Shown: positions 32,490 through 44,336, counted from the stretch's first letter. The stretch is 64,000 nucleotides of DNA from an uncultured archaeon (GCA_964342815.1 CAYFHS010000012.1:32001-96000), one strand, 5' to 3'. The notes: generated from the sequence alone by a model not told the origin. Made by a program: numbers and translations.

Positions 32490-32551
32490 AATGTCCCTTT
32501 CGACCTATTCAATATCGTAGATATTTTCCATATATCACTTGGGGGAATTAA

Positions 32552-33502
32552 ATGAAGGATAATAAAAAGGTCTTCAGAAAGACCGAATCCGGTCTGAACT
32601 GCCCGAACTGCAGCCAGTTCATGGGCCCGTTCAAAGTTTGCCCATACTGCAGGACAAAGGTAAAGAACCGCCTGGATATCAGGACCTTCAAGGCTATTAG
32701 CGTTGTTGTTGCCGTAGTGGGGATCGCCTTCTTATTGGTCTGGGCCAACATGAAAGATCGGGAAAAGTGGGATATTGAGGATCTGACCAAACGCCAGAAT
32801 TACGCGTACCTAGAATTCAACGGTACCGTGGTGGAAGATTCTCGTTATTATGTTTCATTCGGAGCGGAAGGGGAAAGACTCCCCGGTTCCCTAAGTTTCC
32901 GTTTTGACGATGGAACCGGGATAATGGAGGTAAAAGCATACCAGGAGGTTGCCAAGGACCTTGTCAAAGAAAAGATGATCCCTGTTAGAGGCGACAGCAT
33001 AAAAATTTCCGGCCCCGTCAACTATCGCGGCAACGACATGACGCTGCTGCTGCAGGATTGGACAGCCCTCGAGATCGAGAGACCCGATCCCGATATTACC
33101 GTAACTATCGCAGACATTTATGAGAATCCGGATGAAGATGCCTTTCCATTTGGAAAGATGATAAAAGTATCCGGTCTTTTAACTGGAGCGGTATTTGTGG
33201 CAGAAGATCTTGAAACGGATTTTGCTGACAAGGTCGGTAATATGAAAATTCTGATAAAGGACGAGAATGACAACACAGCCATTATTCATGTGGCCCAATC
33301 TCTCTACTCACCATATTATCTCTATAACGAAGAAGTTGGCGCTGGAGAATATAACTTATATGAAGTGGGGACTGAACTCATAACGGTTACCGGTCATCTC
33401 GTCTGGGACAAGTATGCGCCCAACGAGGTTACGGGCGGGAAGGGGAACTGGGTTATTGAACCACAGAGACTGGAAGACGTACATCTGGAGGTGGTTTCAT
33501 AG
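32552..33502 (+). CDS. Zn-ribbon / TM / tandem OB-fold protein (OB protein 1)
   Basis: CPNC..CPYC, one TM helix, then OB-like patterns FNGTVVE...FRFDDGTGIMEV...GDSIKISGPV and IKVSGLL...IKDENDN...ITVTGHL. Confidence 0.8.
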   Translation: MKDNKKVFRKTESGLNCPNCSQFMGPFKVCPYCRTKVKNRLDIRTFKAISVVVAVVGIAFLLVWANMKDREKWDIEDLTKRQNYAYLEFNGTVVEDSRYYVSFGAEGERLPGSLSFRFDDGTGIMEVKAYQEVAKDLVKEKMIPVRGDSIKISGPVNYRGNDMTLLLQDWTALEIERPDPDITVTIADIYENPDEDAFPFGKMIKVSGLLTGAVFVAEDLETDFADKVGNMKILIKDENDNTAIIHVAQSLYSPYYLYNEEVGAGEYNLYEVGTELITVTGHLVWDKYAPNEVTGGKGNWVIEPQRLEDVHLEVVS

Positions 33503-34800
33503 CCGAGAAGATCGAAGAAACCGAGAAAAAGCCAGTTGGGAAGGAAGAAGTGCTGGCCGCAGGCAAGAAACAATGTCCCGCTTGCGGTAAATACGTTGAC
33601 AAGGAACGCCGTATCTGCCCCGAGTGTACCGCACATTTCAGCTACCGCATAAAGGAATCTACCCTGGTGAAATTCTCATCTATATTTGTTGTAATAGGCG
33701 TCGTATTCTTTCTGATAGCAGCATATTGGCCAACAGGTATAACCGACGTGGAAGACATGGACCGATATGACAATTTCTCAATCATGACTTTCAAGGGAAA
33801 GGTGGTTGAAGCACCCGACTACGACGTTTATCCTTACCAGGAATACGGTGAGATGAAATTAAATATAAGCGACGAGACAGGTTATTTACAAGTACTATGC
33901 AACAGCGGGGTGACCGAGAGTCTGATAAAGAGCGGAAAGATACCAGCCGTTGGCGACACCGTGGAAGTGACAGGGCGAGTTCTTTTCATTGAGTCCGTGT
34001 CCCCCGGGGCATGGAAAAACATCACTCTTTCAAATCAAGGCCTCAAATTATATCTTAAAGGGGAAGCAGAACTAAAGGGGCGGGAAGATGCGTTCAAACG
34101 GGTGGAGGTGATGTACGAGGATAACATCAAGATATTTCCCAACAAATACACGAAAAAGTCGATTTCCAATATTGCCGGAAAACCCAAAGAAACCTTTGAA
34201 ATTGGCACAAAAGTTGTGGTGAGCGGAAAAGTTGTTTCTGTTTTAACAGATTACCCCACTGCTTATCAGTTCCATATCGGTGACGAAGATAATGCAAAAA
34301 ATCTCATGGTATATGTTCCAAAGGGTCTCGTTCAACTATCTGGCATTGAATTAGAATCGGAAGAAGATATCATTTTCAATATAAAACCGGGTTCGGATGT
34401 TACAATAATCGGTGCTTTGATATATTATGACAATAAAGAGATATGGGAATTGGTACCAACATCTGTGGGGACGAAAATCAAAGTGGGTGGAAATCCGTGT
34501 TTCGAAGTTACTCAAGAGGATTCTTCGTTTACATTTACCGTGGACAAAATAATGTCCAACAAGGGATTGTACGAGAATGCACGCGTAGGATTGAATAATG
34601 TCAAAATAGTAAATAAAAACTATAAATTGTATGTTAAAGACCAGGGTGGTACGGATGAAATTGTTCTTTTCAGCTATGGAAGTTTAGGAGAATATAATAC
34701 AGGTGACATCGTTAACGTCGAAGGGCAATTTATATATTATGAAGGAAAAAAGATATGGGAAATTAAACTAAATGCCGATGATATCAGGGAGGTGGTCTGA
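33499..34800 (+). CDS. Zn-ribbon / TM / triple OB-fold protein (OB protein 2); probable ATA start at 33499 (track starts at 33550)
   Basis: CPAC..CPEC, one TM helix, three OB-like units (FKGKVVE..ISDETG..GDTVEVTGRV; VVSGKVV..GSDVTIIGAL; GDIVNVEGQF). SD GGAGGTGG at 33487-33494. Confidence 0.8.
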   Translation: MAEKIEETEKKPVGKEEVLAAGKKQCPACGKYVDKERRICPECTAHFSYRIKESTLVKFSSIFVVIGVVFFLIAAYWPTGITDVEDMDRYDNFSIMTFKGKVVEAPDYDVYPYQEYGEMKLNISDETGYLQVLCNSGVTESLIKSGKIPAVGDTVEVTGRVLFIESVSPGAWKNITLSNQGLKLYLKGEAELKGREDAFKRVEVMYEDNIKIFPNKYTKKSISNIAGKPKETFEIGTKVVVSGKVVSVLTDYPTAYQFHIGDEDNAKNLMVYVPKGLVQLSGIELESEEDIIFNIKPGSDVTIIGALIYYDNKEIWELVPTSVGTKIKVGGNPCFEVTQEDSSFTFTVDKIMSNKGLYENARVGLNNVKIVNKNYKLYVKDQGGTDEIVLFSYGSLGEYNTGDIVNVEGQFIYYEGKKIWEIKLNADDIREVV

Positions 34801-36144
34801 GTGAACATGCCGCTTGATCTGATGCTTTTTACCATTGCAATTACCACAGTTGCCGCCGTGGTCGGGGGTCTCATTACAATGATGTTCCCTGGAATGCACG
34901 TTTACAACCTTTTGGGATTCATGATGATATTTTCCATGGCCACGGTGGAGAGCATTAACCCGATCTATCTGGCGTCTATCATAGTTGGATTGATGCTGGG
35001 TTACATCATGACCTTCTCTTCCATAAGTACTCTTTATTTCCAGGCACCCGACGACTCCACAATGTTCTTCATGATGCCTTCCCAGAAATACATGATGAAG
35101 GGAAAGGGGCATGCAGCTGCCGTGCTGGGTGCTGTTGGCTCGCTTGTTGGAGTTCTCATCGTGGTGGTGGGTCTCCCACTGGGAGGATTCATAATCAAGA
35201 TATTTTACGATGTGTTCAAAGAAGCAATGTTCTTTCTCACCGGTATCGTGATCTGCTTCATCCTCATGTCCGAATGGCCCAAGGATTTCGGACAGGGACA
35301 GACCAAGTGGCAGCGGATGAGGGACGGGTGGTCCACTCTCATGTGGGGATATCTGGTGTTCTTCCTGGCCTCAATACTCGGTATAATAAACTTCAATAAA
35401 CCGCTCATTCCGGCATCCAACGCCTTTCAGAGTCTGGCGCCCATCTTTATCGGTCTTTTTGCCATTCCCTCCATGATCACCAACGTGATATCGAAGACAA
35501 ACATTCCGCCGCAGTTCGTTTCCAAAAGCGTCCATCTAAGAGCCCATCATATTATTCAGAGCGGGGTATCCGGTGCGGCAGGAGGTCTGTACGGCGCTGT
35601 AACACCTGGAGTGACCCCGGGCCCATCTGGTTATATGGCGGGCCACGCGACAGCACAGAGCGGAGAGACGAATTTTCTAATGTCTATGAACGTGAACAGG
35701 ATAGTGTATTACGTTGGGGCGGCCACGCTGCTGCTGCACCCCGACGTTCACCTAAGGAGAGGCGGGGTATCCATGTTCATTGACCTTTTCGGCTACTCTC
35801 CCAAGAGCTCCGCGGATTACTATCTCGTAATCTCAGCCCTATGTTTCGCAGCATTTTTCTCGTTCATTCTGATACTTGGTTTGTCCAGGGTGGCGGGGAA
35901 ATTCGTGAGAAAGCTCGACTTCAGAATAATATCAATAATCAGTATCGTGGTGCTTGTGATCATTGTGGTGCTGTTCACCTCATGGCAGGGCCTGATAGTC
36001 CTCACCGTTGCTTCCGGACTCGGTCTCTTACCGGTTCTTTTCCAGACTCGCAGGATGAATCTTCTCGCAGTTCTGCTGACACCCATGTTCCTCAATATGA
36101 GCGGTGCCGGCGGTACCGTTGCAAAATTACTGGGGTTGATATAG
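34801..36144 (+). CDS. TctA/DUF112-like (tripartite tricarboxylate transporter-like) multi-TM permease
   Basis: About 12 TM segments. Motifs FPGMHVYN, APDDST...PSQKYMMKGKGHAAAVLGAVGS, GLFAIPS, VTPG. Confidence 0.8.
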   Translation: MNMPLDLMLFTIAITTVAAVVGGLITMMFPGMHVYNLLGFMMIFSMATVESINPIYLASIIVGLMLGYIMTFSSISTLYFQAPDDSTMFFMMPSQKYMMKGKGHAAAVLGAVGSLVGVLIVVVGLPLGGFIIKIFYDVFKEAMFFLTGIVICFILMSEWPKDFGQGQTKWQRMRDGWSTLMWGYLVFFLASILGIINFNKPLIPASNAFQSLAPIFIGLFAIPSMITNVISKTNIPPQFVSKSVHLRAHHIIQSGVSGAAGGLYGAVTPGVTPGPSGYMAGHATAQSGETNFLMSMNVNRIVYYVGAATLLLHPDVHLRRGGVSMFIDLFGYSPKSSADYYLVISALCFAAFFSFILILGLSRVAGKFVRKLDFRIISIISIVVLVIIVVLFTSWQGLIVLTVASGLGLLPVLFQTRRMNLLAVLLTPMFLNMSGAGGTVAKLLGLI

Positions 36145-37232
36145 TGAAAGGCCTCACACATTACATCGTAGGGGTCGCCGTGGCGACATTCTTCATTGAC
36201 GCAGTCCAGATGACGCTTATCGACAAGTCCTGGATAATACTTCTGGGCGGTATCTTCGGAATACTTCCCGATTTCATGGATTTCCGCTTCGCAAGATACT
36301 TGATAGTACACGATTACGAAGTTACACCCGGTCACAAGGAGCTGAATCCGCGCGTTGTGGCCGATACCATAGTAAAGGCCATCGACGAAGCGGCCCAGAC
36401 CGGGAAATCCGTAAAGATAAAACTTCACTCCATGAAGGTAACCCAGGACCTCTGGAGGCAGTATTCCGTCCAGTTCGATACGGACCGTAAGGAAGTTATT
36501 GCAAGGATCGGACCTCTCGTGACCACTGGTCAGACAGAACAACCGGACACGGCACCAAAGGGAGACAAGGCAATGGCGGTTGCGAAGTACAAGAGCGACA
36601 TCAACCACACTTACCACCTGGCAACTAACATAGATATCTGGCACGGGAACGATTACGAGTTCGTCCCCGAGGGCGATAAGGTTCGAGTGGATTTCATACC
36701 ATGGCACAGAAAGATATGGCATTCTCTCACAGCCGCTTTCCTCTTCGCCCCAATAGGACTGCTTCTATATGGTCTGGATTACGAGGGAATTCTAGCCGCC
36801 ATAATAATAATCGTGGCATTCTGGTCCCATGTTCTCGCGGACCAGATGGGTAATCTCGGATCGAACTTGATCTATCCATTCACTAAAAAGAGGTCAAGGG
36901 GTTTGAAGCTCACCAGCGCAGCGGACCCATTTTCAAATATCTCTTTCGTTTGGGGTGCCATCGCGATAATCATCTTCAATTTCAACGCGTTCAATTTCAC
37001 CCATACCTTCATGATGTGGGGGATCGACGATTATCATGGTCTGAATTACTTCATAGGATTTGGGGAGTATTTTCTGCTGATTGTGGTGATACCCATGGTC
37101 CTTCTGAAACTGGGGATAACGTTTTACAAAAAGAAATTCATTACACGGACGGTAAAGGAAGAGCCCTTATCGGATGAGGAAAAGGAGGCCCTTGAGTCAC
37201 TGGCGGAGATAAGCGACGTGGTAAGGGGGTAA
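36144..37232 (+). CDS. YdjM/DUF457-like membrane-bound metal-dependent hydrolase with a soluble insertion
   Basis: Start GTG 36144 (MKGLTHY), not 35841. Motifs THY, LPDFMDF, WHRKIWHS, SHVLADQM. Confidence 0.8.
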   Translation: MKGLTHYIVGVAVATFFIDAVQMTLIDKSWIILLGGIFGILPDFMDFRFARYLIVHDYEVTPGHKELNPRVVADTIVKAIDEAAQTGKSVKIKLHSMKVTQDLWRQYSVQFDTDRKEVIARIGPLVTTGQTEQPDTAPKGDKAMAVAKYKSDINHTYHLATNIDIWHGNDYEFVPEGDKVRVDFIPWHRKIWHSLTAAFLFAPIGLLLYGLDYEGILAAIIIIVAFWSHVLADQMGNLGSNLIYPFTKKRSRGLKLTSAADPFSNISFVWGAIAIIIFNFNAFNFTHTFMMWGIDDYHGLNYFIGFGEYFLLIVVIPMVLLKLGITFYKKKFITRTVKEEPLSDEEKEALESLAEISDVVRG

Positions 37233-37235
37233 TAA

Positions 37236-40200
37236 ATGAATGCCGAGCCGAATATTATTTATAAAAGGGCCTTTACAGCCATCGTATCCGTCGTTCTGCT
37301 GACAAGCGCTTTACTGAGCTTGCTTCCATTGGCAGGATCATCACCCGATAGAGAAAGCAGATCGGTACTGGAAATAGTTATCAGCGAGGTCGCGCCTCAC
37401 GGTGGCGGTTTTCAGGGTGAGGACTGGCTCGAACTTCTTGTGGTCTCGGGCAGCGGGGACATCTCGGATTACGTGGTGACGAGTTTCGACAGCCAGGATG
37501 ATGACGAGAGCTTCGCGAATTCCACAGTTACGGTGAATGAGGGCGAACGCCTCTTGGTACATTACAACGGTAGCTTAGCGGACGAAACGGATATAACGGG
37601 AGACACTAACGGGAACGGATACATCGATCTGTACATTGCTTCGTCCGAGCTCTCACGTACTCATGAACAGGCCGCTCTCTATACAGCTTCAGATTATTCC
37701 GTTATGGTGGACGCCGTATGCTGGAGCAAAGGGGATATCACCGCAAGCGAGGCGGCAGATGCCCAGAACCTTGTTGACCTGGGAATGTGGCCCTCGAACT
37801 CTGCATCAGACATGGTTTACTCGGGTGACATAGACAAAGGGATAAGCATAGCAAGAAAGGAGGGGAGGAATGACACCGACAAGCAAAGTGATTGGTACGT
37901 GGAACCGAAAAGTTCTCCAGGGGCCGAAAACAAATTTTTTAACTTTACTGGAGAGGTGCTAATAACCGGGGTATACCTTTCCGGATCCCCCAAGGCACTT
38001 ACAATAAAGGTGATCACCGGAGGTGGTGATGTTTCCTGCCTGTCCGTATCCGATCTCGATCGTGCCCCAATCTTTCTCGCCACCGAACCGGTCAGTCTCA
38101 CTCAAGGTGATGAGCTTATATTATATTTCGGAACGGGAACGAATGAAACAGACTCCATAGGGGATATAAATCAGAACAATCTTTGGGAACTGTTTATCGA
38201 TCCAAAGATTTCTCCCACAGGTACCACGGATGCAGTTGCACTCTTCAACGGACTGGACGTAATGGACGCTGTTGCATGGTGTACCGATGGAAAGCTCAGT
38301 TCAGGTGAAATATCCGACCTGGAGTTCCTAATTTCCCAAAACGCATGGGACGGAAATACCAGTGAACACTGTGTGAATATCTCCTTGATGGGCTCACGAA
38401 ATGAGCTTGTTCGATCAGAACTAAACGACACGAATACCAGTGCCGACTGGACCATCAGCGGTGAGATAAACAAAGAGATCGATCTCAAGAAATTCGACCT
38501 TGAGACCTTCCGGAACGTGGATTCTGTTACATGTGGTGTTTCCCCCGATTCGAGCTTTTGGTTATTGGCCGGGTTAATTGAGAATGCAACGGAAAGTATC
38601 CATATCGAGGTTTACCAGTTCGATAATTTTAAAATCGCTGAGAAAGTATTTGCCGCTCAAGAAAGGGGCGTTGAGGTGAAGGTATTGCTGGAGGGAGCGC
38701 CGGTTGCCGGTATACCTGACATGGAAAAATATGTTATGAAAGTAATAACTGATAAGGGAGGGGAGGTCCGTTATATAATCACGGATTCGGATGCTGGTAT
38801 AAAGGAGAGGTACACAAACGTTCACTCTAAATTCATGGTTGTTGATGGGGAGAAATCTTTCATTACTTCCGAGAATTTCAGGGATGACGCTATTCCCTAC
38901 TACGGTACCAAGGGAAACAGAGGATGGTCGGTTCTCATCGAATCGGTTGAGGTTGCGGAATACTTTGAAGGGGTTTTCTCATATGATTTCACACCCAGCA
39001 GCCCAGATACCTTTCCATTTACCGAGAACGATCCTGTTTACGGGGGTCCCCCGGATGGCTTCAACCCGTCATCCAGCCCAAAAAGCGGAAAACACGAAAA
39101 GGTTTTCCACGAACAAAAATTCACGGGTAATATCTATGTAACTCCTATCCTGTGCCCGGACCATACCGGTGATTTGAAGGCCATTTTACCACTTATTGAA
39201 AGCGCAAAAGATTATATCTGGGTAGAGCAACACAGCGTGGGAGTGATATGGGACGACAGTAATAATAAAATTGATAATCAATATTTGGATGCACTTCACC
39301 AGGCGGCAAGGCGGGGCGTGGAGGTGAGGGTTATCCTCGATTCCAAGTTTGAGTTCGATAATAAACATGAGGAGATCGTCAATAATTTAAATGAGCTTGC
39401 CAAGACAGAAAGACTAAACATGGTAGCAAAGTTATCCTCCAATAAACGAATCGAAGTGGAAAAGGTTCATAATAAAGGAATCATAGTGGACGGTATGAAA
39501 GTACTGGTATCGTCTATCAACTGGGCCACCAATTCCATCTATAACAACCGCGAGGCCGGGGTCATTATAGAGAACGAAGAGGTTGCCGATTATTATTCAA
39601 AGGCATTCCTTCTGGATTGGGGTGAGAACAATACAGGGGTCATAGAGGGAATCGTCACGAACCCGGATGGCAACTATATCTCAGGGGCCGATGTGAAGAT
39701 TGAAGGCACGGGCTTCAATACGATAACAGAATCGGATGGTAGTTTCATCATAACCGGCGTTCCGGTGGGAACCTATATTTTGAAGGTCACTGCCGTGGGA
39801 TTCGAAGAGCATTCCCAGGGTGTCACGGTGGAATTATGGGTGCCAGCCAATGTCACATGCATCATAGGTTCCTGGGGAGCTATTGAGGGAATTGTAAAAG
39901 ATATCAATGGAAACCCAATGAAAGGAGCGAAGGTGATAATCGACGATACCGATATAGTCGTTTACACAGACGATAAAGGCCGTTATCTTATAGAGAAAGC
40001 CCCGGTTGGCAGTTATTATCTGAACATAACAATGAAAAAATACCGGAATCTTCTCACCCAGGTTGAAGTGGAGATGGGTAAGATTTATCAGGCAGAGTCG
40101 ACCATTACTAAGGAAAGCTCAACCGGGACCGATGGAGAAGATTCCAATAAACCACCCCTTTATCTTCTGGTAATTCTAGGAGTTATCCTTGTGCTGGTAT

Positions 40201-40322
40201 TGGTTATTTTTTCAGCGATTGTACTAAACGCAAAAAAAGTAAGCAAATTGGAAAAGGGAAAGAAAGTAACCCGCATCAGCGGAGATCAGCATCCCTTTGA
40301 CGATAAGATCGAAAAGGAATAA
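37236..40322 (+). CDS. Membrane-anchored PLD-superfamily enzyme: two lamin-tail-like domains, two HKD motifs, carboxypeptidase-regulatory-like repeats and a TM helix
   Basis: Signal peptide; IVISEV...DWLEL; HSKFMVVD and HNKGIIVD; SSINWATNSIYNNREAG; two IEGIV....G....GA.V.I repeats; C-terminal TM helix. Confidence 0.88.
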   Translation: MNAEPNIIYKRAFTAIVSVVLLTSALLSLLPLAGSSPDRESRSVLEIVISEVAPHGGGFQGEDWLELLVVSGSGDISDYVVTSFDSQDDDESFANSTVTVNEGERLLVHYNGSLADETDITGDTNGNGYIDLYIASSELSRTHEQAALYTASDYSVMVDAVCWSKGDITASEAADAQNLVDLGMWPSNSASDMVYSGDIDKGISIARKEGRNDTDKQSDWYVEPKSSPGAENKFFNFTGEVLITGVYLSGSPKALTIKVITGGGDVSCLSVSDLDRAPIFLATEPVSLTQGDELILYFGTGTNETDSIGDINQNNLWELFIDPKISPTGTTDAVALFNGLDVMDAVAWCTDGKLSSGEISDLEFLISQNAWDGNTSEHCVNISLMGSRNELVRSELNDTNTSADWTISGEINKEIDLKKFDLETFRNVDSVTCGVSPDSSFWLLAGLIENATESIHIEVYQFDNFKIAEKVFAAQERGVEVKVLLEGAPVAGIPDMEKYVMKVITDKGGEVRYIITDSDAGIKERYTNVHSKFMVVDGEKSFITSENFRDDAIPYYGTKGNRGWSVLIESVEVAEYFEGVFSYDFTPSSPDTFPFTENDPVYGGPPDGFNPSSSPKSGKHEKVFHEQKFTGNIYVTPILCPDHTGDLKAILPLIESAKDYIWVEQHSVGVIWDDSNNKIDNQYLDALHQAARRGVEVRVILDSKFEFDNKHEEIVNNLNELAKTERLNMVAKLSSNKRIEVEKVHNKGIIVDGMKVLVSSINWATNSIYNNREAGVIIENEEVADYYSKAFLLDWGENNTGVIEGIVTNPDGNYISGADVKIEGTGFNTITESDGSFIITGVPVGTYILKVTAVGFEEHSQGVTVELWVPANVTCIIGSWGAIEGIVKDINGNPMKGAKVIIDDTDIVVYTDDKGRYLIEKAPVGSYYLNITMKKYRNLLTQVEVEMGKIYQAESTITKESSTGTDGEDSNKPPLYLLVILGVILVLVLVIFSAIVLNAKKVSKLEKGKKVTRISGDQHPFDDKIEKE

Positions 40323-40438: not shown

Positions 40439-41638
40439 ATGAGCTTGAAAATTATCCATTCTCCAAAGCCGATACTATTCGCAATTATTGCAGTAATAAT
40501 CATTTTCCTACCAATTTTTTCTGTTACACAACCAGCAAGATCACAAGCCGTGGCCACCGGGACCGCGCTGCGGGAAGTTAACCTGAGGATGAATGCAAAC
40601 GGACTTACGCCCATCACTCCTCCGGAAGACGAGACGACAAGAAAAAGATCGACGCCAAGTGGACTAATGCCTTTCCCGGTCCCTGGAATATCTCTTATAA
40701 ACCCGAATTTTCAGAAAGTGGGAACGTGGGAGCTGGATAATATCGCGGATGTTATTTCTATTCAGCAGCCGGTGAAATTCATAATATGGTTGTCCACATC
40801 CAGTGCCACAAGCGGGGATATAAAGTTCACCCTGAAATACGGTACTGTAGTTGTGGCCGGACCAACCGTGCTCGATGCCAACAATATCGATACCTCAGCA
40901 AAGCGGTACGAGGTTTCCTCACATGCGAACCTCACCACCACGGATAGCGGAAAACCGTTGGGATTAGAGATTGAGTCCAAAATAAACGGGGACGGGGTTA
41001 TGATCCATTATGGAGGTTATCAAGAGGATTCGGGGGTTAGTTTCATGAGCGATGCGGTGAAATTCAAGTATTTGCATGCAGGACCGAAGGAATTTTGTGT
41101 GGAATTCAGCGATGCTTTTCGGGCTCCCGTAAACGACATCTACCCCATAATCTTCGTAGATGATATGGCTGTGTATGACGAGGATGGAAACGTTCTCGAG
41201 CGGACAATATCAGAGAACGGTAACAATTTATTCAAATGGAAATTGAAGCTCCTTCCGGGAGTACATACCTTTCTCGTGGGGATCGCTTATGCTAAAAACA
41301 GGGACATCAACCTTACCTGGAACACACAGGTGAGTCTCAAGGTCGTATTAGAAGATAATGACCGAAGTTGGTTACAAGGTATGGGTACTGGAGATATTAT
41401 CGTCATGTTCTTGTTGATGATAGGAGTGCTGGTATTTTTCATATCCATTTTCGCGGTTCTATCGTCCCGAAGTTCCGCAAAAAATGTATACGTGCGCAGA
41501 TCACCAATACCAGATCGGTATCGGTTGATCGTAAAAAAGAAGATGGACCGCTTCCATATGAAGCCAAGACCCGCTGTAAGGTCCGCAAGGCAAACCGGGG
41601 GAAAGAGGGCTTTTCATAAAGCGAAAAAAAAGAAGTAA
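40439..41638 (+). CDS. Hypothetical secreted, membrane-anchored protein with a basic tail
   Basis: Signal peptide, beta-rich body, TM IIVMFLLMIGVLVFFISIFAVL, K/R-rich C-terminus. Confidence 0.75.
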   Translation: MSLKIIHSPKPILFAIIAVIIIFLPIFSVTQPARSQAVATGTALREVNLRMNANGLTPITPPEDETTRKRSTPSGLMPFPVPGISLINPNFQKVGTWELDNIADVISIQQPVKFIIWLSTSSATSGDIKFTLKYGTVVVAGPTVLDANNIDTSAKRYEVSSHANLTTTDSGKPLGLEIESKINGDGVMIHYGGYQEDSGVSFMSDAVKFKYLHAGPKEFCVEFSDAFRAPVNDIYPIIFVDDMAVYDEDGNVLERTISENGNNLFKWKLKLLPGVHTFLVGIAYAKNRDINLTWNTQVSLKVVLEDNDRSWLQGMGTGDIIVMFLLMIGVLVFFISIFAVLSSRSSAKNVYVRRSPIPDRYRLIVKKKMDRFHMKPRPAVRSARQTGGKRAFHKAKKKK

Positions 41639-41651
41639 ATTTTCCTTTTTT

Positions 41652-42431
41652 TTATTTATCCTGGGATTCATTTCCCGTCTTTTTCTGAATAGCTATCGCC
41701 TCAAGAAGATCAAGTTCACCTATGGCCACCCGGGCTGCCAGCGTACGTGATATCGTCACAAATGAGCCGCTTCTTATCCGGCTGATCCTCTGAATATCTT
41801 TTAATTCACCCGGGGTGGGATTGATATTCATATAACTCTCCACGGGGGAGCCGGGCATAGAAGATATTTCGATAGCAGCATTGATATGAGGATCGTGCTT
41901 CAAGCGTGTCGTGCTGGTCTCATCTGCGATCTCAAGGATAAACTCATTTTTTTTCCTCAGCTCCAAAAGGTCGTTTATGATACGATTCCGGATAGTTACA
42001 GCCTGGTGACCCACCTTGACCTTTCTATTTTCCGCATCATATGTGTAAAAGACCTTCTCGACGATAACAGAAACCTCTTGGGGTGAATAACATTTGTACT
42101 GGTTAATCAACTCACCGTCCCCAATTACCGCCACACCGGGAGACTTGCCCGGATCCACTCCTATCACCAAATACTTGATCCTAACGCGACCGCGGAGTAT
42201 CTCAAGGGCCCGATCAACCATTCGAGGGATATCACCCTCTGTTTCCACTATGATCTTTCGTGGAAAATCGATCTCTTCCATGCAGGACCGGGTTGTGATA
42301 ACCACACCAACATTGTAGGGGATCGGCTCGCCCCCCGCAAGGGATATAAAACTGATATTTTTCCTCTTCAATTCCCTTATCAATCCGTAATACAGTCGAA
42401 ATTCATCTGTAATAAGGGCCATTATCTTCAT
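41652..42431 (-). CDS. Hypothetical protein with a YqgF/RNase H-like core
   Basis: VIGVDPGKSPGVAV, KVGHQ, IADETSTT and NAAIEI follow the order of the YqgF motifs. Confidence 0.6.
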   Translation of the reverse strand: MKIMALITDEFRLYYGLIRELKRKNISFISLAGGEPIPYNVGVVITTRSCMEEIDFPRKIIVETEGDIPRMVDRALEILRGRVRIKYLVIGVDPGKSPGVAVIGDGELINQYKCYSPQEVSVIVEKVFYTYDAENRKVKVGHQAVTIRNRIINDLLELRKKNEFILEIADETSTTRLKHDPHINAAIEISSMPGSPVESYMNINPTPGELKDIQRISRIRSGSFVTISRTLAARVAIGELDLLEAIAIQKKTGNESQDK

Positions 42432-42473
42432 GGTGCATCCCGGCGGTCAATGGAATCAACTCAAACTTTTACA

Positions 42474-44336
42474 TCACTCACCCCAGTCAACCGCGCCTTC
42501 CACGATATAATCCTCGTCAAAGAACTCCTCCTGGGAACCTACGAAAACGTTGGTCTTTTCCTTTAGCTGAAACGCCCTTCCATCCATGGCCCGCATTCCC
42601 CTGGTGGCAAAGGTAAGTCGGTTCTGCCCGAGGTTCTGGAATCTAAGTTTCATTCTCTCGCTGTGGGAAGCCTGACCCTTTATTTCCGCTATCTTCCTGA
42701 AACCTTTCTGGTCCACCACTCCGGAGACCTTTAACATGATCTCTTTTATATGGGTATTCGAATTGTTCTTAATAGTTATCTCCGCAGGTACCCAATCCTC
42801 AACCCTTGAGGCCTCCTCCAGTAGATTAATATTAACGTCGATATCTATCTCCTTCATCTCCATTTCCCTGAAGAATTGTTCGATCTGACCAACTTCCCTT
42901 TTGACATCCATTGCTTTCCCTTTCTTGTAGGCATTCATAGCCTTCTCCAAATGGTCTGTAATATCCTTTGGAACCATGCAAACCTTTTCGAAGCTCTTCA
43001 ACTTTTCCTTGAGAGCCTTGAGTTCGATGCCCCCTTCCCGCTTCTCCTGTTCCTTCCGAGAATGTCTCGCTCGGGCTCTGGATAATGCGGAATATGTGGC
43101 CGTGATGTATTCCTGTATCTTTTTGTAATCTTCCGCGGTCTTTGCTTGTTCCATCTTCTCGATGATCTTCTCCACCAGGTTCTCAGCATCCTCGATATCC
43201 ACGCCCTTTGAGCGGTCCTGCTGAAGCTCGCCGTTTAGAGCCATGAGGGCATTTCTAACGTTGGCGTACATATTCTCCATATTGGAGCGCTGCCTCCAAT
43301 CGATCTCGTCCTTTACAATATCCAACTCGACACTGGACTGCCGGGCATATTCCTCGGCCATCTTGAAATCCGATGCCAAGAGCATGCGGTTGGCTTCCCC
43401 CAGTATCGATTCAGCTTGGTAAACGTTCACTCCCAGGTTCTTGGCGAGGTATAACCGGGAAGAAACTCCCTCAACCTTATTCAATGTCTTCTGGTAAGTC
43501 TTGACGTGGGATTCGATCAAGGGTCCAGCTTTTTGTGCGAGATCTATGGCTGTGAAGAAATCTGCATTGTAAACCGCATATTCCGCCTGAGATAGGGTTT
43601 CCTGGACGTTGGAAAAGATAATATCCGGTTGGAGCGATATCTCGTAATAGGAATCCTGAATCAATTTATTGACGTATTCGGTCTGGGCTACATCTAGTAG
43701 TTTCGTAAAATTCTCCATTTCCTTGTAAGCGTTATTCAGGTCATTTGCCTTGATATGGACGTTTATAATTTCCAGTTTATCAGGCATTTCCGGATTTTCT
43801 ATCTCAAGTTTTTTGCACTGCTCATACCTGCGTATCAATTCATCTAGATAGGTCGATATCTGAGAATATCTCTGATATATATCCTCAGTCAGAGTCCATG
43901 CCTGACTTGCGTATAACATAGCTGCCTCATGGTCGTGCAGTTTCATCTTGCTACGCAGTGCTGCCAGCAGCCTCAGGGGTTTTTTCATATCCATACCCAG
44001 CTCCGTATATTTCTTGATATTAGCGAGGCTCTGTTCAACCGTTGCGATTATTTCCTGGACTTTCAGATCGATATTATGAGCAGTATTCTTTGCCTTATTC
44101 AGACGATTTCCCACCGCAATGTAGTCCTTCATACCCCTGCAACGCGTGAACTGGCTCTTGGCGGACAACAATTCCTGTTTCGAAGCACTGACGTCCACAC
44201 CGTCTGCGGCCAAAGACAAGAGATATGCATCCATCTCGACAAATTCGTTCTCCAGGTACTCCTTGAACTTTTTTGTCTTTGCAAGTATCTCCATAGTTTT
44301 CGTAACCTTTGCACGAAATTCATCGCTCTCATCCAT
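42474..44336 (-). CDS. Helical-repeat protein with a C-terminal Ig/CARDB-like domain (620 aa)
   Basis: Turn motifs DGVDVS, LGMDMK, LGVNVY and KGVDIE separate helical segments. C-terminal beta-rich region EITIKNNSNTHIKEI. Confidence 0.75.
   Translation of the reverse strand: MDESDEFRAKVTKTMEILAKTKKFKEYLENEFVEMDAYLLSLAADGVDVSASKQELLSAKSQFTRCRGMKDYIAVGNRLNKAKNTAHNIDLKVQEIIATVEQSLANIKKYTELGMDMKKPLRLLAALRSKMKLHDHEAAMLYASQAWTLTEDIYQRYSQISTYLDELIRRYEQCKKLEIENPEMPDKLEIINVHIKANDLNNAYKEMENFTKLLDVAQTEYVNKLIQDSYYEISLQPDIIFSNVQETLSQAEYAVYNADFFTAIDLAQKAGPLIESHVKTYQKTLNKVEGVSSRLYLAKNLGVNVYQAESILGEANRMLLASDFKMAEEYARQSSVELDIVKDEIDWRQRSNMENMYANVRNALMALNGELQQDRSKGVDIEDAENLVEKIIEKMEQAKTAEDYKKIQEYITATYSALSRARARHSRKEQEKREGGIELKALKEKLKSFEKVCMVPKDITDHLEKAMNAYKKGKAMDVKREVGQIEQFFREMEMKEIDIDVNINLLEEASRVEDWVPAEITIKNNSNTHIKEIMLKVSGVVDQKGFRKIAEIKGQASHSERMKLRFQNLGQNRLTFATRGMRAMDGRAFQLKEKTNVFVGSQEEFFDEDYIVEGAVDWGE

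Follow-up and report, generated by a model that had tools for sequence, protein, structure and literature searches.

A widely conserved membrane module of archaea and bacteria pairs OB-fold proteins with a divergent TctA-type permease and may capture and import nucleic-acid fragments

The locus described in this report lies in a window of 64,000 nucleotides (GCA_964342815.1 CAYFHS010000012.1:32001-96000) from a marine archaeon and consists of five tightly packed open reading frames (ORFs) on the same strand, in the order OB1, OB2, TctA, YdjM-like and PLD. ORF calls and Pfam confirmed the five genes and most of the domain types that a previous reading of the sequence alone had assigned to them. 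The features are listed here by their coordinates in the window.

32490..32551, + strand: leader upstream of OB1, 62 nt, intergenic, A/T-rich CCATATATC, with GGGGG preceding the ATG
32552..33502, + strand: OB1, 316 aa; Cys4 Zn ribbon aa 17-34 (predicted cytoplasmic), transmembrane (TM) helix aa 41-59, then an acidic ectodomain with a membrane-proximal OB fold (aa 78-160) and ~150 aa more
33550..34800, + strand: OB2, a paralogue of OB1, 416 aa, GTG start; Zn ribbon aa 9-26, TM helix aa 36-59, OB barrels at ~aa 72-147, 182-303 and 318-414
34801..36144, + strand: divergent TctA/DUF112-family permease, 447 aa
36144..37232, + strand: YdjM/DUF457-type six-TM protein, 362 aa, GTG start
36282..36713, + strand: ~145-aa, beta-rich insert of the YdjM-like protein, between TM2 and TM3 (aa 47-190)
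37236..40322, + strand: two-HKD PLD-superfamily phosphodiesterase, predicted to be surface-anchored, 1028 aa, opening with an N-terminal signal/TM
37365..37931 and 37941..38480, + strand: LTD-like repeats of the PLD
38508..39635, + strand: catalytic core of the PLD, followed by two CarboxypepD_reg domains
40158..40226, + strand: C-terminal TM of the PLD (aa 975-997), followed by a Lys-rich tail

Three of the four junctions are as tight as had been proposed. At the OB2/TctA junction, stop and start codons abut (TGA then GTG, at 34800/34801), with GGGAGGTGG directly upstream. The TctA and YdjM-like genes overlap by 1 nt at 36144 (TAGTG), the latter starting with GTG rather than ATG, and a 3-nt gap (37233-35) separates the YdjM-like and PLD genes (TAA-TAA-ATG). 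By contrast, the 4-nt overlap between OB1 and OB2 proposed at 33499-33502 is contradicted by the sequence, in which the codon at that point is ATA. An ATGA overlap between these two genes does exist at the ORF level in a close relative (L021), and the two genomes have a common OB2 start—GTG at 33550 here, ATG in L021—which leaves a 47-nt gap between OB1 and OB2. The 62-nt leader possibly contains the operon promoter and ribosome-binding site.

OB2 matches PF01336 above its curated cut-off (4.6e-9; 36.5 bits, cut-off 27), its Zn ribbon is also recognized by Pfam, and its AlphaFold model (pLDDT 86.6) displays the Zn ribbon, the TM helix (residues 36-59) and three OB barrels, for which the top Foldseek matches are RPA, SSB, HIN, POT1 and TEBP (E 1e-9 to 1e-5 against RPA, SSB, POT1 and HIN). 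OB1, which has orthologues with 82, 57, 41 and 34% identity in four related genomes, scores under the PF01336 cut-off (0.0015; 18.9 bits against 27), and a custom OB-family HMM finds one OB fold in it, at residues 78-160. The proposed architecture of a Zn ribbon, one TM helix and two or three OB units is borne out for OB2, whereas a second unit in OB1 is suggested solely by length and alignment. OB homologues at other loci match PF01336 at up to 3e-41, with 4-6 repeats, as well as PF13742; these families and the Foldseek matches to RPA, SSB, POT1 and HIN identify the OB domains as belonging to nucleic-acid-type families, as had been assumed. In Chloroflexota homologues, the TM and OB regions score just under cut-off on DUF4131, the N-terminal OB domain of ComEC (6e-7). 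The number of OB folds varies from 1 to 6 in tandem per protein, and that of paralogues from 1 to 3 per locus. The charge flanking the TM helix in OB proteins (net +2.2 before, -0.3 after) predicts that the OB domains face outward, in agreement with the original proposal. With pI values of 4.4-4.8, the ectodomains of OB1 and OB2 are acidic, yet this is no argument against DNA binding, because all large surface proteins of the window are similarly acidic (pI 4.0-4.6); verrucomicrobial OB homologues are basic (pI 9-9.8).

The permease matches nearly the whole of PF01970 (2.3e-28; profile positions 4-422 of 423). It is ~26% identical to the generic TctA paralogue of its own genome and 33-43% identical to copies of the cluster type in other phyla and domains, and cluster-type and generic proteins are split in the tree with support of 1.0. 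By these sequence comparisons, it belongs to a subfamily separate from generic archaeal TctA. Archaeal TctA has been described as stand-alone (Makarova et al. 2015), and the claim that this copy has no TctB or TctC partner held up: in the source genome, which is 88.9% complete, neither TctC (PF03401, for which controls matched) nor TctB (PF07331) was found, and neighbour clustering revealed no TctC-type gene at any of 160 loci. No long fused forms of TctA were found, which is weak evidence. P0178, in which the N-terminal half of TctA is joined to the C-terminal half of YdjM, was rejected as a functional fusion, as it is known from one metagenome contig alone and has the appearance of a deletion product.

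The YdjM-like protein matches PF04307 (1.2e-14). Across 52 YdjM-type sequences, D43, D46, R189, H193, H229 and D233 are invariant, while H6 and H188 are kept in at least 90%. Its AlphaFold model (pLDDT 90.9) has no solved structural relative, as the best Foldseek E value is 0.05 and VIA gives Z values of at most 6.2, for a helix pair only. An outward-facing His/Asp site is not supported, as positive-inside counts predict that both the site and the insert are cytoplasmic. None of the 52 sequences has a Pfam OB match within the insert, and Desulfurococcaceae/Staphylothermus proteins carry an extra OB-like domain there. LexA controls genes with the YdjM motif in both E. coli and S. aureus (PMC11442139).

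This gene arrangement is strongly conserved. We analysed two sets of 80 loci each: one from species genomes, anchored on the YdjM-like gene (71 assessable for an upstream TctA), and one from metagenomes, anchored on the divergent TctA (68 assessable upstream and 67 downstream). In the first set, 47/71 loci have the divergent TctA immediately before YdjM, and an OB protein is found upstream in 42 of the 44 TctA-bearing loci. In the second, a Zn-ribbon/TM/OB protein is encoded directly upstream of TctA in 63/68 loci, and YdjM directly downstream in 35/67. These counts rule out chance neighbours. The predicted co-localization of OB, DUF112/TctA and DUF457 genes is found in the same order across archaea (including Thermoplasmatota, DHVE2, Hadarchaeota and Asgard) and at least seven bacterial phyla, and the cluster, whose lack of conservation had been named beforehand as grounds for rejecting the proposal, is widely kept. 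Among 301 Thermoplasmatota genomes, the TctA and YdjM types occur in exactly the same eight. The locus counts define an invariant core of OB and TctA, usually accompanied by YdjM (present in about half to two thirds of loci), with the PLD being optional. In Chloroflexota, the two halves of the module are often encoded apart within a genome (3/5 genomes), and there are YdjM-PLD pairs lacking TctA and OB at the same locus. Neighbour clustering found no further gene family common across lineages, and there is no conserved nucleotide-salvage gene at the locus. When YdjM is missing, the genes downstream of TctA are unrelated (DsbD, GreA, integrase, RACo, nitroreductase), while in seven DHVE2 loci YdjM is followed by an HD + HD_assoc_2 gene, which we take to encode a dNTPase-like phosphohydrolase. 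Archaea and bacteria are interleaved in the tree, and integrases lie near six loci. We read the locus as a single copy of a membrane module that moves horizontally among archaea and bacteria. Closed DHVE2/Aciduliprofundum-family genomes also contain the module, and we found no published description of an OB+TctA module in the literature on DUF457, TctA/DUF112 and COG1784.

The PLD has two PLDc_2 (5e-38) and two CarboxypepD_reg matches in Pfam, both of its HxK(x)4D motifs are intact in a single chain, and H106, K108, D113, H321 and K323 are invariant in a 19-sequence alignment of the core. The proposal that it is a nuclease was not upheld by its closest relatives. Against PDB sequences, the PLD profile scores best with the SpPLD phospholipase (5.6e-15), followed by Nuc (1e-12), NucT (2e-11) and Zucchini (2e-11), and further down by PLD3/4 (1e-7) and classical PLDs (1e-5 to 1e-3); the best solved relative, 7e0m, is a proven phospholipase (PMC8004604). 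The lamin-tail assignment is better founded in other lineages, whose partner PLDs contain strong LTDs (1e-28 to 1e-74; a custom HMM was used to call the LTD of the DHVE2 PLD), than in the window, where no LTD (PF00932) is matched in Pfam at E<=0.1 and the two N-terminal repeats of ~190 aa resemble the LTD profile weakly (hhalign 53%, E 1.4e-4, 109 columns). Nor does the PLD qualify as the integral part it was thought to be. It adjoins the module in 16/60 loci, and the PLD type is found in 227/301 Thermoplasmatota genomes regardless of the module (present in 8), nearly all of them module-free, which makes genome-level co-occurrence of PLD and module uninformative. PLD/LTD neighbours are confined to archaea and Chloroflexota, with 0/15 loci of typical diderm phyla having one, a distribution that fits a surface enzyme feeding a cytoplasmic-membrane receptor directly. 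One Thermoplasmata locus encodes a protein in which OB and LTD are fused.

The best explanation for these findings, plausible yet still short of probable, is that the module performs surface capture and import of nucleic-acid fragments, and the interpretation offered by the sequence-only reading is partly supported. The core would comprise one to three paralogues with a cytoplasmic Zn ribbon, a single TM helix and an outward array of 1-6 OB folds, and, encoded immediately downstream, a divergent TctA-family secondary permease. The optional parts would be a YdjM/DUF457 six-TM metal-binding protein, with its His/Asp site and insert at the cytoplasmic face, and, often in archaea and Chloroflexota, a surface-anchored LTD and two-HKD PLD phosphodiesterase. 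We infer that the OB array would capture an extracellular polyanionic phosphodiester at the membrane, most likely single-stranded nucleic acid or oligonucleotides, which surface phosphodiesterases such as the neighbouring PLD could cut; that the TctA-type carrier would import the fragments by means of an ion gradient; and that the YdjM-type hydrolase would process them as they emerge inside. The OB array may thereby stand in for the missing TctC—an earlier suggestion with which the OB-TctA pairing fits, without establishing the replacement itself—and, via its TM helices, possibly for TctB. The gene linkage, co-occurrence, domain identities and OB2 fold are observations, whereas topology, substrate, transport direction and all catalytic steps are inferred. 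Nucleic acid as the cargo is favoured by the OB families and the OB2 matches, the OB-LTD fusion, the OB-like domain in some YdjM inserts, the HD gene of the DHVE2 loci, the LexA regulation of YdjM-motif genes and the extracellular DNases that combine LTD and OB domains. The dispensability of the PLD and its phospholipase relative, a published guess that YdjM is a phospholipase and the lack of a conserved nucleotide-salvage gene count against import of nucleic acid. Moreover, the only cargo that we know of for TctA-family proteins is small anions of the carboxylate type, with no precedent for a nucleotide or oligonucleotide, and carboxylates were also predicted for the archaeal family (PMC5898192). 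We are more doubtful, and regard it as rather unlikely, that the module is a previously unrecognized, ComEC-independent importer of nucleic-acid polymers or oligomers in archaea and bacteria, in which an RPA-like outer OB array would pass oligonucleotides or single strands on to a permease of the TctA fold and a DUF457 metallo-hydrolase (with an OB-like domain in Desulfurococcaceae) would receive and cut them at the inner face.

Other explanations have to be weighed against capture and import of nucleic-acid fragments. The module might be a binding-protein-dependent TTT-like transporter of a small anion other than nucleic acid—a carboxylate, phospho-sugar, phosphomonoester or polyphosphate fragment—in which the OB array acts just as a receptor or structural subunit, and YdjM and the PLD were added in particular lineages without a substrate logic in common. 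We see this as possible, if on the unlikely side. OB folds such as TOBE and CusF do bind small ligands, about half of the TctA-anchored loci contain nothing of the module but OB+TctA, the PLD lacks specificity for it, and carboxylates are what both the TctA family and a prediction for archaeal arCOG04469 suggest (PMC5898192). However, neither the number of OB folds nor that of paralogues per locus would be expected of a small-solute receptor, the sequence relatives of these OB domains are nucleic-acid OB families, and the perfect co-occurrence of YdjM with the TctA type in the Thermoplasmatota sample argues that YdjM is no casual addition. Unlikely, in our view, is remodelling of membrane lipids or the envelope, whereby the PLD and YdjM would act on own or foreign phospholipids and the TctA-type protein would move head groups or lipid-derived anions. 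The phospholipase relative of the PLD, its near-universal presence in the phylum, as for a housekeeping envelope enzyme, the YdjM-PLD pairs of Chloroflexota and a published guess that YdjM is a phospholipase (PMC11442139) are all consistent with such a role. Nevertheless, it leaves unexplained the most tightly linked component, the nucleic-acid-type OB arrays, and most loci have no PLD; furthermore, archaea with ether lipids and bacteria with ester lipids both keep the module, which speaks for a substrate that the two share.

Distinctly unlikely is an analogue of ComEC for transformation, in which the OB domains would hold DNA, the PLD would remove or nick a strand, and long single-stranded DNA would thread through the TctA-fold protein into the cell. 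Its parts list of OB, channel and hydrolase is ComEC-like, as are the Chloroflexota TM and OB regions that approach the DUF4131 cut-off, an OB-like domain is present on the cytoplasmic side of some YdjM proteins, and PF03772 (Competence) has no match in the source genome. Yet the TctA fold is that of an elevator-type carrier of small solutes rather than a channel, the locus shows no linked ATPase, pilus gene or ComFA- or DprA-like partner, and the anti-correlation with ComEC that had been predicted is not seen, since PF03772 is present in all five bacterial carriers tested. We consider it highly improbable that the module exports DNA or some other anionic polymer, or tethers it to the surface, for a biofilm matrix, or that it acts in envelope defence or exclusion. 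The patchy, transfer-prone distribution (8/301 genomes, with archaea and bacteria interleaved) and the nearby integrases would suit such a function, as would the resemblance of the PLD to DrmC, whose models it alone matches in PADLOC. Against this, no PADLOC model matches OB1, OB2, TctA, YdjM or the downstream gene, DrmC partner genes are absent, no ATPase or sensor is linked, and defence nucleases are cytoplasmic while this PLD is predicted to be extracellular.

The module ties stand-alone archaeal TctA/DUF112 and DUF457/YdjM, a family under SOS control in E. coli and S. aureus, to outward nucleic-acid-type OB arrays, with a gene linkage as tight as that of established operons and across two domains of life. 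If it is indeed an importer of nucleic acid, this would be the first function for DUF457 and for stand-alone archaeal TctA, and would provide a candidate DNA/oligonucleotide importer for archaea, most of which, to our knowledge, are missing ComEC. Extracellular nucleic acid is a major source of phosphorus, nitrogen and carbon in the sea and in sediments, the habitat of most module-bearing organisms. Because the carriers include the DHVE2/Aciduliprofundum group, which has cultured members, the import hypothesis is directly testable. Whatever the cargo, the pairing of an OB-fold receptor and a TTT-family carrier would add a new architecture to binding-protein-dependent secondary transport.

Comparison with known systems highlights important similarities and differences. 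As in TctABC (TTT), a full-length TctA permease adjoins membrane-anchored extracytoplasmic proteins that are candidate receptors. Here, however, the partners are Zn-ribbon/TM/OB-fold arrays rather than a TctC-type binding protein, in a genome with no detected TctB or TctC, the permease belongs to a separate subfamily, and a YdjM hydrolase is attached. Like ComEC/Rec2, the module combines a polytopic membrane domain with an OB fold on the outer side and a metal-dependent hydrolase, but it does so without Competence (PF03772) and metallo-beta-lactamase domains, its parts are separate genes of unrelated families, and its hydrolase site is predicted to be cytoplasmic. Extracellular DNase activity is proven or proposed for proteins that combine LTD, OB and nuclease domains (ExeM, PMC6085458; Izemoplasma DNA loci, PMC8289736). 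Shewanella ExeM, B. subtilis YhcR and the Izemoplasma loci likewise bring together extracytoplasmic LTD, PF01336-type OB and phosphodiesterase domains, with transporter genes nearby. Their catalytic domain is EEP or SNase, whereas that of the window is a two-HKD PLD, and the OB folds of the module are on separate membrane-anchored proteins, coupled to a TctA permease and not to the nuclease. Finally, the E. coli inner-membrane proteins YdjM/YbcI share with the window protein a PF04307 match and conserved His/Asp residues at helix ends, to which the window protein adds a predicted cytoplasmic insert of ~145 aa and genetic coupling to TctA and OB.

The five genes of the cluster are present in the window as open reading frames on one strand at 32552-40322, as the sequence-only reading had described them:

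32552-33502, (+) strand: OB1, putative OB-fold protein
33550-34800, (+) strand: OB2, Zn-ribbon and OB-fold protein
34801-36144, (+) strand: TctA, DUF112-like permease
36144-37232, (+) strand: YdjM-like (DUF457/PF04307) membrane protein
37236-40322, (+) strand: PLD, phospholipase-D-superfamily protein with two HKD motifs

The junctions are as tight as first read for OB2/TctA (TGA then GTG, abutting at 34800/34801, with a GGGAGGTGG motif in front), TctA/YdjM (TAGTG, a 1-nt overlap at 36144, with GTG as the YdjM start codon) and YdjM/PLD (TAA-TAA-ATG, a 3-nt gap at 37233-35). However, the 4-nt overlap of OB1 and OB2 proposed at 33499-33502 is absent, the codon in the window being ATA; in a 94%-related genome (L021), an ATG overlaps the OB1 stop at the same place (window 33499-33552). 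Because the OB2 start common to both is at 33550 (GTG in the window, ATG in L021), the spacing between the two genes is 47 nt. Three ORFs downstream of the cluster, of 399, 259, and 620 aa (40439-44336), lack any Pfam match; the first of them, for which PADLOC gave no match either, is kept only in the closest relative. A defence role is unsupported by PADLOC.

OB, TctA, and YdjM genes form a module shared by archaea and bacteria. All five genes have orthologues in the same order in three further genomes of the family, and OB-OB-TctA-YdjM also occurs in a different family of the same class. Two scans were run: the first searched a single genome for each GTDB species with a profile of YdjM proteins that carry the insert (315 loci, the best 80 analysed, with module genes called by purpose-built family HMMs), and the second covered metagenome contigs and took the TctA subfamily as its anchor (515 loci, 80 analysed). 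Among the best 80 of the 315 YdjM-anchored loci, TctA lies directly upstream of YdjM in 47 of the 71 with enough sequence; of the 44 loci with TctA, 42 have one or more Zn-ribbon/TM/OB proteins upstream and 32 have two or more. In the 80 of 515 TctA-anchored loci, an OB protein adjoins TctA upstream (63/68) and YdjM adjoins it downstream (35/67). Both scans bear out the suggestion that DUF112, OB-fold, and DUF457 genes co-localise across archaea and bacteria. Clustering of all other ORFs at the analysed loci yielded no further gene family common across lineages. Carriers include, in archaea, Thermoplasmatota, DHVE2/Aciduliprofundum, Aenigmatarchaeota, Hadarchaeota, and Asgard archaea and, in bacteria, Verrucomicrobiota/Lentisphaerae/Kiritimatiellae, Chloroflexota, Planctomycetota, Spirochaetota, Muiribacteriota, Wallbacteria, and Rifleibacteriota. 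Exactly the same 8 of 301 sampled Thermoplasmatota genomes carry the TctA subfamily and the YdjM type, from which we conclude that the module is rare and patchy in its distribution and that its parts are inherited together. Six loci from different lineages (L044, L052, L095, L108, L143, and L146) have a phage-integrase-family gene no more than a few kb from the module, which is compatible with mobility. In DHVE2/Aciduliprofundum, an HD + HD_assoc_2 gene, which we take to be dNTP-triphosphohydrolase-like, directly follows the YdjM-type gene (L033:10168-11475 and six other loci).

The tightest link in the module is that of the OB protein with TctA, the usual arrangement of genes for a receptor and its carrier. 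TctA has a full-length Pfam match (2.3e-28) and is indeed without TctB or TctC, neither of which was found in the genome of the window (4.35 Mb, 88.9% complete), which by its relatives is a marine Thermoplasmatota MAG. In our tree, a split with support 1.0 sets the cluster-type TctA clade apart from the generic archaeal paralogue; within that clade, archaeal and bacterial members interleave, indicating transfer between domains. At locus L017 of the window's genome (contig C1, 1372-5657, minus strand), the generic paralogue sits immediately downstream of a secreted S8 subtilase (1054 aa, with a CARDB domain) and also adjoins CarboxypepD_reg surface proteins, a second case of a surface hydrolase paired with a stand-alone TctA. 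A 447-aa protein from a single JGI metagenome contig (P0178) joins an N-terminal half of cluster-type TctA to a YdjM-type C-terminal half, probably through an in-frame deletion spanning the boundary of the two genes.

The domains assigned to both OB proteins hold for OB2, with PF01336 over cut-off (4.6e-9) and a Zn ribbon; for OB1, PF01336 stays under cut-off (0.0015). In the predicted structure of OB2 (pLDDT 86.6), a Zn ribbon and a single TM helix are followed by three OB barrels, and the structural neighbours of this model are all tandem-OB DNA binders (RPA, SSB, POT1, TEBP, and HIN). Across 51 family members, the TM helix is preceded by 12 residues of net charge +2.2 and followed by 12 of net charge -0.3, which predicts a cytoplasmic Zn ribbon and, as proposed, outward-facing OB domains. 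The family has one to six OB units per protein, the conserved one being membrane proximal, and homologues elsewhere score up to 3e-41 on PF01336 and 7e-20 on PF13742; in Chloroflexota, the TM helix and first OB score 6e-7 on DUF4131, the ComEC N-terminal domain, under cut-off. The OB ectodomains in the window are acidic, as is every large surface protein there, and verrucomicrobial homologues are basic. The YdjM-like protein (Pfam match 1.2e-14) is modelled with six TM helices and a 145-aa β-rich insert (pLDDT 90.9), and no solved structural relative of this model was found. K+R counts in 52 sequences place the N terminus, the insert, the Lys/Arg-rich loop 4, and the C-tail inside, so the conserved His/Asp cluster would lie at the cytoplasmic face. 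Two 460-aa Desulfurococcaceae/Staphylothermus proteins (P0129 and P0136) have an extra ~100-aa domain inside the cytoplasmic insert, OB-like by our own HMM in one representative (E 4e-6) and by motif pattern alone in the other; in the ESM Atlas, a matching 466-aa cluster from archaea has PF01336 annotated on 39% of its members.

PLD, which had been read as an integral part, is an accessory: a surface enzyme of general occurrence in the phylum, which sometimes lies beside the module without defining it. The two-HKD core of its type is nearly universal in Thermoplasmatota, being present in 227 of the 301 genomes, typically once per genome and within a 600-2300-aa ORF; such a core lies at C4:166559-167746 in the genome of the window, which itself has two more copies. 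PLD directly follows YdjM in 16 of 60 loci (best 80 of 315), and among the loci examined PLD or LTD neighbours were found only in archaea and Chloroflexota, with none at 15 assessable loci from typical diderm phyla. Chloroflexota often carry YdjM-PLD and OB-OB-X-TctA at separate loci within one genome, and in a closed 1,486,778-bp DHVE2-family genome OB-OB-OB-TctA-YdjM lies 250 kb from a 618-aa gene encoding a signal peptide, an LTD, two HKD motifs, and a C-terminal TM anchor. The window PLD has two PLDc_2 and two CarboxypepD_reg domains; Pfam detected no LTD in it, its two N-terminal repeats resembling LTD at profile level alone (53%, E 1.4e-4), and same-position PLDs of other lineages have one to six strong LTDs.

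What these genes do we infer from what is demonstrated, namely gene linkage, domain identities, and the OB2 fold. Three features make us prefer a polymeric phosphodiester over a small solute as the ligand: the multi-OB arrays are variable, they are akin in sequence to nucleic-acid OB families, and they occur fused or adjacent to LTD. These features, the OB-TctA linkage, and two precedents—ExeM, whose OB region, combined with LTD, is required for DNase activity (PMC6085458), and Izemoplasma DNA-degradation loci, where an LTD/OB/nuclease protein lies beside transporters (PMC8289736)—favour a tentative scheme in which OB proteins would capture extracellular nucleic acid at the cell surface, surface phosphodiesterases would cleave it, the TctA-type carrier would import the fragments, and YdjM would process them at the inner face. 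Against nucleic-acid import, TctA carriers are known for small carboxylates only (PMC5898192). Two further points count against it and for lipid remodelling, which had been named as the main alternative: the published guess for YdjM is a phospholipase (PMC11442139), and the best solved relative of PLD is a true phospholipase (7e0m, PMC8004604), ahead of Nuc, NucT, and Zucchini. Also against nucleic-acid import, no nucleotide-salvage genes are conserved near the module apart from the presumed dNTPase-like gene of DHVE2. The ComEC competence domain has no match in the 88.9%-complete genome of the window, but the expected anti-correlation fails, since ComEC was found in all five bacterial carriers tested, which weakens the idea that the module replaces it.

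We found no paper describing the OB/TctA/YdjM gene set, and the archaeal TctA family is called stand-alone in its one systematic treatment (PMC5898192). Among known systems, the module comes closest to binding-protein-dependent secondary transport and to surface loci for nucleic-acid degradation; were import of a polymer to be shown, it would potentially be more than a variant of either.
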